From assembly GCA_041664385.1 (NCBI GenBank), contig JBAYKY010000002.1:1-50010 (forward strand): 50,010 nt of DNA, in the 5' to 3' direction. This stretch comes from Minisyncoccota bacterium (lineage in GTDB: Bacteria; Patescibacteriota; Minisyncoccia; UBA6257; GWB1-50-10). Positions 37,325-45,986 of this stretch are shown here, piece after piece. Within the stretch, counting starts at the first letter, position 1. Each line of letters opens with the position of its first letter. The notes under the pieces are model-generated. The model saw nothing but the letters and a program-made list of their open reading frames with translations, made no database searches and had not been told where the DNA came from. The translations under genes and the position numbers were made by a program.

Positions 37325-40300
37325 ATGACCAAGAAAGTTGTTTCTTGTGTTTTCGTTTTATTTTGTGCGTTCGCAAGTTTCGAATATGCGCATGCATATG
37401 ATGATGAGACAACACACCCCGCACTCACAAGTGAGGTTATTAGCTTTTATAATTCAACTCATCCTGATAAATTATTTACAGAAGAGCAACGGAATTGGAT
37501 TGTAGAGGGGAGCAAGCTTGAAGATGTGGCTCCGCGTTGGATAAATCATTTTTATGACCCCATCTTAAAAGAAGGATGGACTGGAGAGAAAACTGGGAGT
37601 ATTGCCCCGCTTGCAGTACGTATGGTTGCAGAATTTGGCCTAGCCCAAGGGAAGCCACTTTCTGCGGTTGAGTGGGTAAATAATGATTTACGACAGGGAG
37701 ATTATATTTGGTACGAAGGAAATAAGACATGGAAGAAAGCTCTTGATGAGTATGCGTCAGGAAATGAGAGAGAAGCATATATTGCACTCGGGCACGTGCT
37801 CCATCTTTTAGAAGACATGTCGGTGCCTGATCATACGCGCAATGATACGCATGCTCCACTTGGCGACCTAGTGGGAGATGAGGGTTCTCCTTTTGAAACC
37901 TATCTTGCAAAGTCAGAAACAAAACTTAATATTGCAAATGCACTTACAAGGTTAGATAAACAAGAAATACAAGAGTCATCTATTGAAGATCATCTTGCTG
38001 CTCTTGCTGTATATTCAAATAAATATTTCTTTTCAAAAGACACTATAAATGATCCAAAATATAGATTTCCGAAAATTTTAAAAGAAGACGTAGGATTCGG
38101 ATACGGCCAAGATGAAGATGGACATTTTTTTCCACTTGTGAAAAGTGTAGTGCAAAAAAATATTGAATTTCAAACAAAAATAAATCATTTAATTGAGGAA
38201 ACAGACAAGGATATTTTCAATGCGTACTTTTCCAGACTTTCAAAACAAGTAGTATTACATGGCGCAGGAGTGATAGATCTTTTTTATAAACAAGCGGAAG
38301 ATGCAAAAATTAATAAGGAATTTCCTACACATATTGTGCAGTTTGATAAAGCATGGGGAAGGCTACCTATATTTTCTTTTGTGGGAGAGATTGTGAAGTT
38401 GAAAATTTCAATAAGTAATAGAATAAATTCAATTCGTTTATTTACGAATAAGGTATTAGGATATGAAAAACTTTTAAACAAAATGCAGAAAAAAGAGGTG
38501 ATAACAAATTTAGAAGAAGAAGAAGCTACGGATTTTCCAAAAGAAGAAAGTGAAACTCCCATTATTGATATAGATGAGGGTGTTGCCAATAAAGTTGTTG
38601 AGTCGGTTCTTCTGGATACAGACGCATTGGAAAATGCTCAAAAGGACGAAGAGGTAGCGAATAATAATGTTTCAGAAGAAAATATAGCGAGTACAAATAG
38701 TAATAAGGTTAAAAACGAAATTAAATATACATCTTCTGGCGGTGGTAGTCCTTCAAATAATAGTGATTCGAACACTGAGTGGCTCTCGGCTGAAGTAAGG
38801 ATTGTTGAGATTATGTACGATTTACCAGGAACTGATGAGAAAAGAGAGTGGATTGAGATTCTGAATGAAGGAAATTCGGGTGTTGTAGTTGAAAATATGA
38901 AATTCGTCGAGAAGGGAATAAATCATACTCTTTCACTTGTGCGTGGTACAAGTACCCTTCCTTCGAATGCATATGCGATTATTGCAAGTGATGCAGAACA
39001 ATTTCTTATTGATCATCCCTCATTTCAAGGAACACTTCTTGACAGCACATTTTCATTGAGCAATGAGGGAGAGACGATTGCGCTTAAGGGAGGCACCCGC
39101 ATTTTGAATGAAATTACATATGCCACAAGTACTGGTGCGCACGGGGATGGTAATTCTTTGCAATTAGTAGAAGGCGTGTGGCGCGCATTATCTCCTACGC
39201 CTGGAGAGAAAAATATATACACCCCTCCCCCAATGAATCAAGCACCAAATGTAGTGTTTCGTTATACTCCTCTTGATCCGCAGGTTGGAGATATTGTTCA
39301 GTTCGATGCCGCATCATCGACAGACACAGATGGCTCCATTATTTTCTATCAATGGAATTTTGGTGATAGCACCACTGCAAGTTCTTCATATGCTACTACT
39401 ACTCACACATTTTCGGGTGCTGGGACATACATTTCAACACTTACTTTATATGATAATGAAAATTCATCATCAAGTCGTTCTGTATCTATAGCAGTTGCTC
39501 CGCGTGGGTCGCGTGGAGTTAATCATGTGATAATAAGCGAAATACAAGTTGGGGGCGTTGATGCGGGAGAGGAATTTATTGAGCTCTATAATCCCTCTGC
39601 TCAAGCCTTGGATCTTTCTCTGTGGTCCTTACAGTATGCGAGTGGAAGTGCAGAAAGCGTTTCGTCCTCGACAGTTTTTAAAAAGAATTTTTCTACAACA
39701 TCAGTAATAAACCCAAATAAATTTTTTCTTATAGCACGCACAAAAAATGGAGAGGGGAAAGACGGATATACTGGTTTACAGATTCCTGATCTTTCTCATA
39801 GATCTTTTAGTCTCTCAGGTGCGGCAGCAGGAGGAAAGATTTTTCTGGTACGCAATCAGGACGAAATAGAAAGTGAAAGCGATCCCGATATTGTGGATAT
39901 GGTCGATTATGCAGCTCAAGTGCCAGTAGAGGGTATGAGTATTGAACGGAAGGCGTGGGTATCAAATGCATGTGTATCATCACTCGCAGGAGGAGTAGGA
40001 GAATTTTTGGGTCATGGATGTGATAGTGATGAAATCATTGATTTTGAGGTACGAGCAAATCCGAACCCTCAAAATAGTACAAGTCTTTTAGAGCCACGAA
40101 CGGCGCCTACGACTCCTATGGGTATCGATGGCACAACAACTAGTATTGTATCGTATAGCTCAAGCTCTCTTACTCTTTCTTTTCATTGGCAACCCTCAAT
40201 AGATTTTGAAGGGGCTACATCATCTCTTTTTTATAAGTTATATGAGGTGAGTGGTTCTTCAACGTTAATTACTACGACTACAGAGCCCTCATATTCGATG

Positions 40301-41779
40301 AGTATTAAAGAAATTGGGCGCGTATACGCATTTGAACTCATTGCAGAAGATAGGGAGGGATTTCATTCCGCAACAAGTACTTTTAATATTGAAGTACCAA
40401 GTTTTTTTACTAGTCTCTATTTTTATCAGGATCCGACTAACGGGTCTCCTCAATATCTCACAAAAGCTTTTTTTGATGCATATCCATTCGTATCACAAAA
40501 ATATATAGAGGGAGACGCTTCGAAGATGGTGGTCTTTTATGCGAATACAGACGCGGCTAAAAAAGAGATGATTACTCCTACGGATGCAGGTGCATTTAGT
40601 GATGTGCCGGGTGTGATTGGAATAACTACAAAAAGGTGTGGCGGCTCTATTTGGGAGAGTAGCTATTTGGTTTTGAGAGATGGAAACGATAATTGTGCAT
40701 GGGGACCAACAGTAACGAGTGATGTAAGTCCTTCTCAACCACAGATTGAACCGACTCGGTTTTTGTTTTCTTTGGGAATGCCGAGCGGAGTTACTTATAG
40801 TTCATCAGATTATTTTACTGTTGCGTTCTATGATGCGTGGCCCTATGTTGGCCCTTGGGGGAGCCGCGCATATGAACTTGTGGCTGTAGACAAGAAGCAT
40901 TATCAATTTGGCGTTGAGCCGCGCGTTGCGGCGCCGCATCTTCCTGATTCCGTTCGTGTTGATTACGATCGAACGAATTCAAAAATTACAGTGAATTGGG
41001 ATAAGGCAACAGATGTCGATTCAATGGATTCAGAATTGTTGTATGAAATAAATATTTCACCGCGCGGAGGTCTTGATGAATCGAAGTGGCAGGCACAAGG
41101 AACAAAATTGAGTTATGTGCAAGAGGTAAATATAGAAGAAGCATTTTTGATTGCGGTGCGCGTAAAAGATGAATTTGGGAATGTGTCGGAGACACGTACA
41201 ATTGAATGGCAGACACCATTAATTACTATGCATTTTTCACAAGGAGAAGTAAGTGGGTGGAGTGATAGATGGGGGACACTTAATCAGTATTCTTCTGATC
41301 CTACACGTGCAAGTTTTCAACGTATCGTGCCGCAGGAAGATTTTGCATTTAATACTGCCGCGGTGCGCCTTTCAATTGAAGGAGCTGGAGATCCAAGAAT
41401 TGTTCGTCTCTCAGTATTTCCTGAGGATGGTTCTCATCAGATTGATTTTACAAATCCCCTCGCGCGTTCTTCAATAAATAATTTATCTACGACAAACAAA
41501 GAGAGTGATTCTATTTTTCCATTTGATTCTCCGGTCGTATTCACGAGCAGCACTCCATATTGGTTTGTGTTTGATGCTGCAGAATCTTCGAATTTGATTG
41601 GATTTTATCGAACCTCATTACAAAATGGTGTGGCGGTAGGAAATGTATATGGTGATGGGTATGCAGGATGGGGATATGCGCAGGGGCCAGATGCGGTGTG
41701 CTCTGCATCGTGCAGATTTGTAGCAGGAAATTCAGTAGGTGATAGCGATTGGTATTTGAAGCTCGGGATGAGGGAGTAG
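37325..41779 (+). CDS. giant secreted multidomain protein: PLC/P1-nuclease-like Zn-hydrolase domain, lamin-tail domain, PKD domain, second lamin-tail domain, large beta-rich C-terminal region
   Basis: Signal peptide. LGHVLHLLEDMSVPDHTRND (nt 37787-37850). LTD-like VRIVEIMYDLPGTDEKREWIEILN..SLSNEGETIAL (about 38792-39213). PKD YQWNFGDS (about 39245-39501). Second LTD VIISEIQVGG..EEFIELYN (about 39526-40078). Confidence 0.85.
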   Translation: MTKKVVSCVFVLFCAFASFEYAHAYDDETTHPALTSEVISFYNSTHPDKLFTEEQRNWIVEGSKLEDVAPRWINHFYDPILKEGWTGEKTGSIAPLAVRMVAEFGLAQGKPLSAVEWVNNDLRQGDYIWYEGNKTWKKALDEYASGNEREAYIALGHVLHLLEDMSVPDHTRNDTHAPLGDLVGDEGSPFETYLAKSETKLNIANALTRLDKQEIQESSIEDHLAALAVYSNKYFFSKDTINDPKYRFPKILKEDVGFGYGQDEDGHFFPLVKSVVQKNIEFQTKINHLIEETDKDIFNAYFSRLSKQVVLHGAGVIDLFYKQAEDAKINKEFPTHIVQFDKAWGRLPIFSFVGEIVKLKISISNRINSIRLFTNKVLGYEKLLNKMQKKEVITNLEEEEATDFPKEESETPIIDIDEGVANKVVESVLLDTDALENAQKDEEVANNNVSEENIASTNSNKVKNEIKYTSSGGGSPSNNSDSNTEWLSAEVRIVEIMYDLPGTDEKREWIEILNEGNSGVVVENMKFVEKGINHTLSLVRGTSTLPSNAYAIIASDAEQFLIDHPSFQGTLLDSTFSLSNEGETIALKGGTRILNEITYATSTGAHGDGNSLQLVEGVWRALSPTPGEKNIYTPPPMNQAPNVVFRYTPLDPQVGDIVQFDAASSTDTDGSIIFYQWNFGDSTTASSSYATTTHTFSGAGTYISTLTLYDNENSSSSRSVSIAVAPRGSRGVNHVIISEIQVGGVDAGEEFIELYNPSAQALDLSLWSLQYASGSAESVSSSTVFKKNFSTTSVINPNKFFLIARTKNGEGKDGYTGLQIPDLSHRSFSLSGAAAGGKIFLVRNQDEIESESDPDIVDMVDYAAQVPVEGMSIERKAWVSNACVSSLAGGVGEFLGHGCDSDEIIDFEVRANPNPQNSTSLLEPRTAPTTPMGIDGTTTSIVSYSSSSLTLSFHWQPSIDFEGATSSLFYKLYEVSGSSTLITTTTEPSYSMSIKEIGRVYAFELIAEDREGFHSATSTFNIEVPSFFTSLYFYQDPTNGSPQYLTKAFFDAYPFVSQKYIEGDASKMVVFYANTDAAKKEMITPTDAGAFSDVPGVIGITTKRCGGSIWESSYLVLRDGNDNCAWGPTVTSDVSPSQPQIEPTRFLFSLGMPSGVTYSSSDYFTVAFYDAWPYVGPWGSRAYELVAVDKKHYQFGVEPRVAAPHLPDSVRVDYDRTNSKITVNWDKATDVDSMDSELLYEINISPRGGLDESKWQAQGTKLSYVQEVNIEEAFLIAVRVKDEFGNVSETRTIEWQTPLITMHFSQGEVSGWSDRWGTLNQYSSDPTRASFQRIVPQEDFAFNTAAVRLSIEGAGDPRIVRLSVFPEDGSHQIDFTNPLARSSINNLSTTNKESDSIFPFDSPVVFTSSTPYWFVFDAAESSNLIGFYRTSLQNGVAVGNVYGDGYAGWGYAQGPDAVCSASCRFVAGNSVGDSDWYLKLGMRE

Positions 41780-44937: not shown

Positions 44938-44967
44938 ATTTCCCTCGCAGTGATGCGGGGGATTTTT
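44938..44967 (+). terminator. rho-independent terminator
   Basis: TCCCTCGCA/TGCGGGGGA then TTTTT. Confidence 0.75.
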
Positions 44968-44968
44968 A

Positions 44969-44997
44969 TTGACACATAAGATTGCTCGTATTATATT
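44969..44997 (+). promoter_or_regulatory. sigma70-like promoter TTGACA-17-TATATT driving the RNA operon
   Basis: TTGACA at 44969-74 and TATATT at 44992-97, about 24 nt upstream of the first tRNA-like gene. Confidence 0.6.
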
Positions 44998-45020
44998 GAG
45001 CACTCAAGCACCTTTACAAA

Positions 45021-45131
45021 GGGCCATTAGTTCAGCGGCGACGCCTGTGACATACGGACGTATGTTGCTTTCGGGCGGAGAACGCCTCATTGCTCGTGAG
45101 GAGGCCGAAGGTTCGAATCCTTCATGGTCCG
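45021..45131 (+). tRNA. non-canonical tRNA-like gene: 46-nt D-loop carrying a hairpin insertion, G3:U70, anticodon loop TTGCTCG (GCU)
   Basis: Acceptor GGGCCAT/ATGGTCC, D-stem GTTC/GAAC, anticodon arm CCTCA-TTGCTCG-TGAGG, variable loop AGGCC, T-arm GAAGG-TTCGAAT-CCTTC. No encoded CCA. Confidence 0.6.
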
Positions 45132-45136
45132 CGATT

Positions 45137-45212
45137 GGAGCAGTAGCTCAGTTGGTGAGAGCGTCCCCGCTGTCCGCGGGGAAGGTCGGAGGTTCGATGC
45201 CTCCCTGCCCCA
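45137..45212 (+). tRNA. non-canonical tRNA-like gene, anticodon GUC (Asp-like), with a 6-bp anticodon stem and an A3.C70 mismatch
   Basis: GGAGCAG-TA-GCTC-AGTTGGTGA-GAGC-G-TCCCCG-CTGTCCG-CGGGGA-AGGTC-GGAGG-TTCGATG-CCTCC-CTGCCCC-A. Confidence 0.6.
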
Positions 45213-45444
45213 CGACGTGGAAGTATTTTCGCTTCCACTATCCCACACATGGTTCTTTGGGAATCATGCGGAGATAGCCCGCTTATTCTAATTATGGAAA
45301 GTACCTTAAATGGGGAAAAAGTTGAGATTAGAGCTGAGGTGAAAGTCCTCGAGTGGGCAAATTGTTACGAGTCAGATATCCGACGTGAACGTGAGTGCGC
45401 GTTGCGCACAATACCGGGTTTCCGGATAATCTGCTTCGTTGTTC
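45213..45444 (+). ncRNA. candidate structured RNA of unknown class, co-transcribed with the tRNA-like genes
   Basis: Lies between the tRNAs and a terminator. Hairpins at 45217-38, 45238-77, 45395-409 and 45414-25. Appears more GC-rich than its surroundings. The only ORF reads through the terminator. Confidence 0.4.
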
Positions 45445-45476
45445 CACCCTCGCCACAATCGGCGGGGGTTTTTATT
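45445..45476 (+). terminator. rho-independent terminator ending the RNA operon
   Basis: CCCTCGCC(45447-54)/GGCGGGGG(45461-68) then TTTTT. Confidence 0.75.
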
Positions 45477-45491
45477 TATATTTTAGTTCCG

Positions 45492-45500
45492 TGATAGTAT
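45492..45500 (+). promoter_or_regulatory. extended -10 box TGaTAGTAT, 6 nt before ATG 45507
   Basis: TG-n-TAGTAT at 45492-500, spacer aagcag, ATG at 45507. Confidence 0.45.
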
Positions 45501-45506
45501 AAGCAG

Positions 45507-45986
45507 ATGAAAGGAGAGATTATCGCAGTACTTCATAATATTCGGAGTATTCATAATGTAGGTTCAATATTTAGAACTGCTGATGCGGCAAGAGTTTCAA
45601 AACTTTATTTATGCGGTATTACCCCCGCGCCTTTAGATCGGTTTGGAAAAACCCGACAGGATTTTGCAAAAGTTTCTCTTGGTGCAGAAAAAACAGTCGC
45701 CTATGAATCTGTGCGTTCGATTTTGCCACTTCTCACTAAACTTAAAAAAGAAGGGTATGTTATTGTTGCGGTCGAGCTCGTAAAAGGAGCGGTACCTTAT
45801 TATTCATTGCGGCGCACCCTTAACAATAAAAAAATAGTATTGGTACTAGGGAATGAAGTTGATGGGCTTTCAAAGAGCATTCTTACACGCACCGATATAA
45901 TTACAGAAATTCCTATGCAAGGAAAAAAAGAGTCATTGAACGTAAGTGTTGCGTTTGGTATTGTTGCCTACGGTATTCAGTATTAG
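45507..45986 (+). CDS. SpoU/TrmH family RNA 2'-O-methyltransferase (minimal, 159 aa)
   Basis: SIHNVGSIFRTADA, LVLGNEVDGLS, IPMQGKKESLNVSVAFGI (SPOUT motifs 1-3). Confidence 0.85.
   Translation: MKGEIIAVLHNIRSIHNVGSIFRTADAARVSKLYLCGITPAPLDRFGKTRQDFAKVSLGAEKTVAYESVRSILPLLTKLKKEGYVIVAVELVKGAVPYYSLRRTLNNKKIVLVLGNEVDGLSKSILTRTDIITEIPMQGKKESLNVSVAFGIVAYGIQY

Follow-up and report, generated by a model that had tools for sequence, protein, structure and literature searches.

Within the first 50,010 nucleotides of contig JBAYKY010000002.1 from a Minisyncoccota bacterium (this whole stretch is called the window hereafter), positions 45021–45131 of the forward strand carry a non-canonical tRNA gene. 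It specifies a complete class-I cloverleaf of standard 7/5 geometry, and an insert in its D-loop folds into a hairpin of its own. We are almost certain that this is a real, functional RNA gene of the tRNA family. Our preferred reading, to which we give somewhat less than an even chance, is that the product is a non-canonical tRNA in an accessory role, with the hairpin retained as an additional arm for recognition by a protein. The combination of a D-loop hairpin, a GCU anticodon, a G3·U70 pair, C37 and no long variable arm fits no standard tRNA type. All bacterial tRNAs described so far, to our knowledge, follow the four-arm plan with an optional variable arm. The full-text literature that we searched contained no insertion of this kind in a tRNA from the Candidate Phyla Radiation (CPR) or from other bacteria, and the D-loop-arm architecture thus appears not to have been described for any bacterium. 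A review devoted to natural non-canonical tRNAs (PMC7609411) lists no D-loop hairpin.

A class-I cloverleaf with a hairpin in the D-loop

The acceptor stem GGGCCAT/ATGGTCC (45021–27/45124–30) has 7 bp, including G3·U70 (G45023·T45128), which is the single G·U; every other pair of the required stems is standard. U8 and A9 are present, and the D-stem is formed by GTTC/GAAC (45030–33/45080–83). The anticodon arm (45085–45101) consists of a 5-bp stem and the 7-nt loop TTGCTCG, which contains U33 and the anticodon GCT (45092–94). Position 37, normally a purine (PMC5699536), is C (45095), as it also is in the sister species described below. The variable loop, AGGCC, has 5 nt and is of the class-I type, the long class-II arm being absent. 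The T-arm GAAGG-TTCGAAT-CCTTC is perfect, with a 5-bp stem and a T-loop that fits TTCRANY. The discriminator base at 45131 is G (G73), and CCA is not encoded. As read from the sequence, the nucleotides that make tertiary contacts are all kept, namely U8-A14, G15-C48, G18 and G19, A21, G26, G46, T54-A58 and G53-C61. An earlier note on this DNA, made from its letters, had described this cloverleaf; upon rereading we reproduced its every element and coordinate, and the G3·U70 pair, the GCU anticodon, C37 and the short variable loop all read as it had stated.

When the window was scanned for a T-arm, a 7-bp acceptor stem and U8 in combination, a single match was obtained, whereas 200 dinucleotide shuffles gave 0.025 matches on average. 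The cloverleaf with its hairpin has a folding energy of -38.8 kcal/mol, and the minimum free energy fold (-42.4 kcal/mol) loses the D-stem; gaps of this kind are common with tRNAs, as the energy model takes no account of their tertiary contacts.

With 46 nt, the D-loop lies outside the canonical range of 7–11 nt; nonetheless, the D-stem, A14, G18, G19 and A21 are present. The insert comprises 40 nt (45039–45078), and GCGG occurs on both sides of it, so that its borders are ambiguous by 4 nt (36–40 nt). Read in order, the D-loop consists of AGCGGCGA, the hairpin (45042–45077) and GA. The hairpin is 36 nt long and forms 14 bp with a bulge: an outer stem of 5 bp (45042–46/45073–77), the bulge UUUC (45069–72) on the 3′ strand, an uninterrupted inner stem of 9 bp (45047–55/45060–68) and the terminal loop GGAC. 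This agrees with the inner stem, loop and outer stem that had been claimed before, and the imperfect direct repeat reported at 45035–46/45075–87 is also real, with the core GCGG at both borders. In isolation, the hairpin has a folding energy of -17.0 kcal/mol (z = -3.3). It is placed between G19 and A21, in the position 20–20b region, a segment that faces outward and where natural tRNAs vary in length. In silico excision of the insert yields a textbook D-arm, GTTC-AGCGGA-GAAC.

The GCGG flanks could correspond to a 4-bp target-site duplication, and a MITE-like element was considered; no second copy of the insert was found at ≤3 mismatches in the window, to which this search was limited. AUACGGACGUA resembles WCANGGANGUW, which we take to be the consensus of a CsrA-type GGA-loop site, and is noted as a lead only. 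A K-turn in the hairpin was rejected by eye, as GG and not GA comes after the bulge.

Standard tRNA finders miss the gene

With default settings, ARAGORN did not call the native gene and reported only the neighboring tRNA. The Rfam tRNA model RF00005 gave 23.2 bits, against a gathering score of 29, and wrongly forced the 5′ acceptor strand into the insert. Once 36–40 nt had been removed in silico, ARAGORN defaults called a class-I tRNA of 72–76 nt with the anticodon gct. ARAGORN and covariance-model runs had been proposed in the earlier note, and their outcome, a call only after deletion by the one and a misalignment by the other, bears out that no canonical fold takes up the extra nucleotides.

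Other readings of the region were rejected. A 'tRNA-Arg(tcg)' offered by ARAGORN, which posits a long variable arm and an intron of 19 nt in the anticodon loop, has a mismatched D or anticodon stem and ignores the conserved tertiary nucleotides; a 'tRNA-Pro(cgg)', obtained at lowered thresholds, likewise ignores them and has a mismatched D or anticodon stem. If the gene is taken as a class-II tRNA in disguise, with the anticodon arm read as the variable arm, no acceptable D or anticodon stem is left, and the minus-strand reading has no U33. A YrlA-like Y RNA (RF02553) reached 19.5 bits against a gathering score of 69, in a match that spans both tRNAs of the locus. The YrlA or bacterial Y RNA module also combines a tRNA-like fold with an extra helix, but it closes the acceptor end, and no Ro/Rsr gene was found among the window open reading frames (ORFs) scanned. 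A BLAST search for isotype affinity returned weak similarity to tRNA-Asn, in the 3′ half only.

Because ARAGORN defaults and Rfam at its gathering threshold both miss the gene, such genes fall into a blind spot of annotation. Inventories of CPR tRNAs, and inferences drawn from them on missing tRNAs or altered codes, may accordingly be incomplete.

The insert is conserved in a second species

An orthologous operon was found at a collinear locus in one further species, the Candidatus Paceibacterota metagenome-assembled genome (MAG) SO_2016_GW1_48, through the search of related genomes that had been suggested for this locus. It was seen in ENA, NCBI and JGI assemblies (L004/L040, L016, L031), and L004 was used for comparison. 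The neighboring orthologous proteins are 85% identical, and fourfold-degenerate sites are 55% identical (n = 653). The tRNA gene is identical at 108 of 111 positions, its insert at 39 of 40 and the second tRNA of the operon (tRNA-2) at 76 of 77. High identity also extends to the promoter (44969–44997; 27/29) and the leader (44998–45020; 22/23). The downstream RNA of about 200 nt is 89% identical and the terminators are 79% identical, and the value for the trailer hairpin segment (45214–45248), our local yardstick of weak constraint, is 67%. At a neutral rate of 0.45, the probability of so few changes is 1.5e-9 for the insert (at most one in 40) and 2e-24 for the gene (3/111).

The only change in the insert, C45068T, turns the pair G45047-C45068 into G·U. 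All three stem substitutions in the two tRNAs, T-stem changes included, are of this Watson-Crick to G·U type, and the fourth substitution is a G to A at loop position 38. In its loop and bulge, the hairpin equals the tRNA body in conservation, and this points to a function of the RNA itself; judged from this comparison, the hairpin is constrained at the sequence level, loop and bulge included. We attribute the high identity to constraint and not to one recent transfer to both loci, because the spacers nearby, the trailer hairpin and the terminators, are only 67–79% identical.

These data make it very improbable that the gene is a decaying pseudogene, disrupted by a small insertion, or an artefact of assembly or chimera formation, even though standard finders miss it and direct repeats lie at the insert borders. 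Differences at 3 of 111 positions in the gene and 1 of 40 in the insert stand against 45% at neutral sites, base pairing survives the stem changes, and the intact promoter is conserved; on these grounds we dismiss the decay that the earlier note had allowed for. Its other caveat, an assembly artefact at 45035–45087, is contradicted by the presence of the insert in two species that were assembled independently. Assemblies from JGI, ENA and NCBI, independent of one another, show it in identical form, and it has no second copy in the window.

Retention or excision of the hairpin

On the sequence evidence, the arm is probably retained in the mature RNA. Retention is favored because we know of no excision machinery of this kind in bacteria and because the splice-motif test described below fails. 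It is also favored because the distal part of the hairpin is conserved like the tRNA body, unlike the trailer hairpin.

Alternatively, the 36–40-nt hairpin would be a mini-intron or intervening sequence that is cut out of the transcript, after which the halves would be rejoined (for example, by an endonuclease and an RtcB-type ligase) or would stay nicked, with the acceptor and D stems keeping them in contact; the product would be an ordinary-sized class-I tRNA(GCU). Archaea splice introns at D-loop positions, and here removal of the insert restores a textbook D-arm and GCGG repeats occur at both borders. In addition, CPR rRNA genes are unusually rich in insertions, according to PMC9297842, which cites Brown et al. 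2015. However, the bulge-helix-bulge motif is missing: where the earlier note had thought of an archaeal-type intron, the insert has one 4-nt bulge on the 3′ strand and not two 3-nt bulges 4 bp apart. At 40 nt it is far below the size of group I or group II introns, and it matches no ribozyme family. Junction geometry alone would predict drift or covariation in the distal stem, loop and bulge, as in the trailer hairpin, but these are conserved at 39 of 40 positions. The spliced product would still be anomalous, with C37, G3·U70 and a GCU anticodon on a class-I body. No bacterial enzyme system for such D-loop splicing and no bacterial splicing endonuclease are known to us, and neither a splicing endonuclease (EndA) nor a ligase turned up among the ORFs scanned in ~70 kb of genomes. 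Taken together, we consider excision of a mini-intron rather unlikely. If it did occur, a bacterial, protein-dependent pathway that splices a D-loop mini-intron would be as novel as the relocated SerRS arm considered below.

Known intervening sequences share some of these features. The non-canonical tRNA introns of archaea (Thermoproteales and others) resemble the insert in that they are short, lack an ORF, lie outside the anticodon loop and form hairpins, and in that their deletion restores the cloverleaf. They depend on a bulge-helix-bulge, however, also at D-arm positions, whereas the present insert is bacterial, has a single bulge and is conserved over its whole sequence. Bacterial group I introns likewise interrupt tRNA genes, but they measure at least ~200 nt, possess a catalytic core and reside in the anticodon loop; a group I intron was rejected for the 40-nt insert, which lies in the D-loop and to which no intron or ribozyme family of Rfam matched. 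The insertions in CPR rRNA (Brown et al. 2015, cited in PMC9297842) come from the same radiation and also affect a core RNA of translation, but they concern 16S and 23S rRNA and many are long introns.

Distribution

As far as exact-pattern scans reach, the gene seems confined to one small lineage. A scan of 185,579 species-representative genomes for the anticodon loop and T-loop at class-I spacing gave 14 matches, one of them true. A looser pattern that required a D-loop insert, applied to a metagenome collection, gave one true match among 11, from the same MAG, SO_2016_GW1_48, and a viral contig collection contained nothing relevant. These scans need exact matches, and the metagenome scan missed even the contig of the window, so that the observed spread is a lower bound. 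A six-frame pseudo-protein query of the tRNA region found no homologue. In more distant relatives, the operon is not kept next to homologues of the SpoU-type methylase gene that follows it or of the upstream 170-aa protein. Extension of the contigs by 10 kb revealed no further tRNA, and no other tRNA with a GCU anticodon was found in ~70 kb of the two genomes, which is <10% of a genome.

The loose pattern also matched two metagenome contigs, L026:1696–1786 and L027:3944–4034 (minus strand), where a tRNA-like D-arm and T-arm are separated by an AT-rich stretch of unusual length. These elements are unrelated in sequence to the gene at 45021–45131.

Amino acid identity and the meaning of AGY codons

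The gene carries mixed identity signals. Its GCU anticodon and G73 are those of a bacterial tRNA-Ser, but the long variable arm is absent, as are the C11-G24 pair and the 3-bp D-stem typical of tRNA-Ser. Its G3·U70 pair is that of a tRNA-Ala and is unchanged in the sister species, but A73 and an NGC anticodon are absent. G3·U70 is the major determinant for AlaRS and acts independently of the anticodon (Hou & Schimmel 1988; McClain & Foss 1988, as quoted in PMC7609411). By analogy with this rule, AlaRS would be the most probable charging enzyme, with charging by SerRS through the hairpin as the alternative. The gene thus offers a directly testable natural case of dual or conflicting identity, in which G3·U70 is combined with a Ser anticodon.

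Similar conflicts are known from allo-tRNAs and other rare bacterial tRNAs that have been seen only in (meta)genomes (Mukai et al. 2017, PMC5389517; PMC7609411). In some of these, G3:U70 accompanies a non-Ala anticodon, and Ala and/or Ser is attached to them in E. coli. They share with the present gene the rare metagenomic origin, an unusual architecture and the mixed identity. Allo-tRNAs, however, combine a long variable arm with an acceptor/T geometry of 8/4 or 9/3, whereas in the present RNA this geometry is 7/5, the variable loop is short and the D-loop carries a hairpin.

We then considered how the genome uses AGY codons. AGT and AGC together account for 2.0% of 13,348 codons. In the SpoU-type methylase, an AGT codes for a Ser that is invariant in 118 of 118 homologues, and two further AGY codons fall in Ser-majority columns. 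Compared with orthologues in a more distant CPR genome (L006), AGY codons of the window correspond to TCN Ser codons six times and to a GCN Ala codon once. Because a switch between AGY and TCN takes at least two nucleotide changes, this correspondence is best explained by selection for Ser. In a Codetta-style test with 150 helicase homologues, the AGY columns were at variable sites and weakly informative (Ser 0.14 vs Ala 0.07). On these comparisons, AGY behaves as Ser in this genome. The idea of the earlier note that AGY is deliberately read as Ala therefore fails as a genome-wide code, being at odds with both the SpoU columns and the L006 correspondences; occasional, low-level insertion of Ala at AGY by a minor Ala-charged tRNA may take place. 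Use of the gene product by the ribosome at AGY codons is somewhat doubtful in our estimate.

One way in which it would be so used is as the housekeeping tRNA-Ser(GCU) of the lineage, its decoder of AGY, with the extra arm relocated such that SerRS grips the D-loop hairpin, which would emerge beside the base of a class-II arm. The class-II variable arm (Ser, Leu, bacterial Tyr) is likewise an extra helical arm that leaves the core, and the present RNA shares the GCU anticodon and G73 with tRNA-Ser. AGY codons make up the 2.0% mentioned above and are read as Ser, and no other GCU tRNA was found. In the T. thermophilus structure of tRNA-Ser with SerRS, D-loop nucleotide 20b reportedly stacks on the base of the variable arm, which we take as a lead only. 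However, the class-II arm emerges between positions 44 and 48 and has 3–7 bp, whereas the present one emerges at D-loop position 20/21 and has 14 bulged bp. Neither C11-G24 nor the 3-bp D-stem of tRNA-Ser is present, and G3·U70 would invite mischarging with Ala. Codons that start with A normally need t6A37, to which C37 is unsuited. The gene was found in two related genomes only, so recent replacement of an essential class-II tRNA is improbable, and because ~70 kb is less than 10% of a genome, the missing canonical gene means little. On balance, we regard a relocated SerRS arm as quite improbable. Were it true, the AGY-decoding tRNA-Ser of this lineage would be without its former class-II variable arm, and recognition by SerRS of a helix at D-loop position 20/21 would define a third architectural class of tRNA.

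A proposed accessory tRNA with a fifth arm

We return to the accessory tRNA that keeps its hairpin. This role is favored over housekeeping decoding because the distribution is narrow and because both tRNAs of the operon have C37. It is also favored because G3·U70 conflicts with the Ser anticodon and with a body that lacks the arm used by SerRS. According to this proposal, the RNA would head a transcript of three RNAs that starts at its own strong promoter; RNase P and RNase Z would free it, and CCA would be added to its end. It would fold as a normal class-I L-shape, with the 36-nt bulged hairpin accommodated in the length-tolerant segment of the D-loop, after G18 and G19 and before A21. The hairpin would stay in place as a fifth arm projecting from the elbow and core, and would act as a sequence-specific handle for a protein partner.

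Several points weigh against this proposal. Excision of the hairpin is plausible because CPR rRNA genes carry insertions. The hairpin is known in two near-identical sequence versions, and the accessory status is deduced from the narrow distribution given by exact-pattern scans. Beside the G19:C56 face of the elbow, an arm of this bulk could get in the way of RNase P, the L1 stalk or ribosomal sites, and G73 is suboptimal for AlaRS compared with A73. As for the elbow, some Parcubacteria are without uL1, the L1-stalk protein that contacts it in tRNAs (PMC9297842). Loss of uL1 might relax constraints on the elbow, which is noted as a lead.

The length of the D-loop is otherwise a tight constant in tRNAs, as this loop builds the elbow, which RNase P, the L1 stalk, T-boxes and many enzymes recognize. 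If selection maintains a tRNA with a 14-bp helix in its D-loop, the elbow region would prove much more tolerant than has been assumed, and the graft site would offer engineers a new place for tRNA handles.

The RNA operon

Together, the promoter, the two odd tRNAs, the ~200-nt RNA and a terminator constitute one transcription unit, as read from the sequence. The terminator of the upstream gene (44941–44962) directly precedes a sigma-70-type promoter on the forward strand (44969–44997), TTGACA and TATATT separated by 17 nt, which matches 11 of 12 consensus positions. The earlier note had called this a good promoter, an assessment strengthened by its conservation in the sister species. The transcription start region and a 23-nt 5′ leader of the pre-tRNA follow on the same strand (44998–45020); the leader would be removed by RNase P.

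The second tRNA, with anticodon GTC, is encoded on the forward strand at 45137–45213, 5 nt downstream of the first, and scores 50.2 bits in Rfam. It is aberrant in having an A3·C70 mismatch in the acceptor stem, an anticodon arm with a stem of 6 bp or a loop of 9 nt, C37 and G38, A73 and no encoded CCA. All of these oddities are kept in the sister species, and the sole substitution preserves pairing. A trailer hairpin (45217–45238, forward strand), which shows compensatory changes relative to the sister species, separates tRNA-2 from a structured RNA of ~200 nt (45239–45445, forward strand; z = -4.7, 89% identity to the sister species). For the latter, Rfam gave no family match. An ORF at 45249–45494 was rejected, as it is broken by three 1-nt indels relative to the sister species. 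An intrinsic terminator with a 9-bp stem followed by a T-tract (45446–45478, forward strand) closes the unit.

Co-transcription with an unclassified structured RNA also bears on the possibility that the two tRNA-shaped modules are tRNA-like RNAs with no role in aminoacylation, which would mainly provide signals for processing by RNase P and RNase Z or a scaffold for the ~200-nt RNA, or would act as decoys or regulators. The defects at decoding positions, namely C37 in both tRNAs and the A3·C70 mismatch and 6-bp anticodon stem in tRNA-2, would fit such a role. Processing, however, needs only the acceptor/T-arm minihelix, whereas conservation is just as high in the anticodon arm, at U33, in the D-arm and in the insert. 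Moreover, all tertiary-contact nucleotides are kept, and, like chargeable tRNAs, the RNA has a discriminator base and an open acceptor end. A tRNA-like RNA that is never charged is therefore unlikely.

Genomic setting

The locus sits on a Paceibacteria (CPR) chromosome, not on a phage; among JGI data it is found on contig Ga0376277_0001148 (3300037810; 114.9 kb). The Pfam content of the window includes BipA/TypA, pyruvate kinase, GAPDH, trigger factor, ExoVII, UppS and MFS transporters, and the best matches of the SpoU-type methylase are from Paceibacteria, Jorgensenbacteria and other Patescibacteria MAGs. A phage origin, considered on account of some PHROG matches, co-oriented genes and an elongation-factor-like match, was rejected in view of these housekeeping Pfam genes and Patescibacteria SpoU homologues, and no phage DNA matched the window.

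Directly downstream of the RNA unit, a minimal SpoU/TrmH-family 2′-O-methyltransferase of 159 aa is encoded on the forward strand (45507–45986). The protein falls below every NCBIfam equivalog cut-off (RlmB, TrmH, TrmL, TrmJ). TrmH-type enzymes methylate G18 in the D-loop, and in the present gene G18 neighbors the insert. The adjacency of the SpoU gene to the RNA operon is not kept in more distant relatives (L006, L037). In the sister species, an extra module (L004:3751–3920) with a TTGACA promoter-like sequence, an RNA of ~150 nt and a terminator stands between the operon terminator and the SpoU gene; this module is missing from the window.

Farther upstream, the forward strand encodes a 1484-aa protein with LTD and PKD domains (37325–41779), for which PHROG gave no match. 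The sister species lacks this protein in its collinear region, where genes for dCache/HAMP and PAS sensors are found instead. At 1629–2648, the forward strand encodes an ATP:guanido phosphotransferase with N-terminal and catalytic domains, of the phosphagen or arginine-kinase type, an enzyme unusual for a bacterium with a reduced genome.

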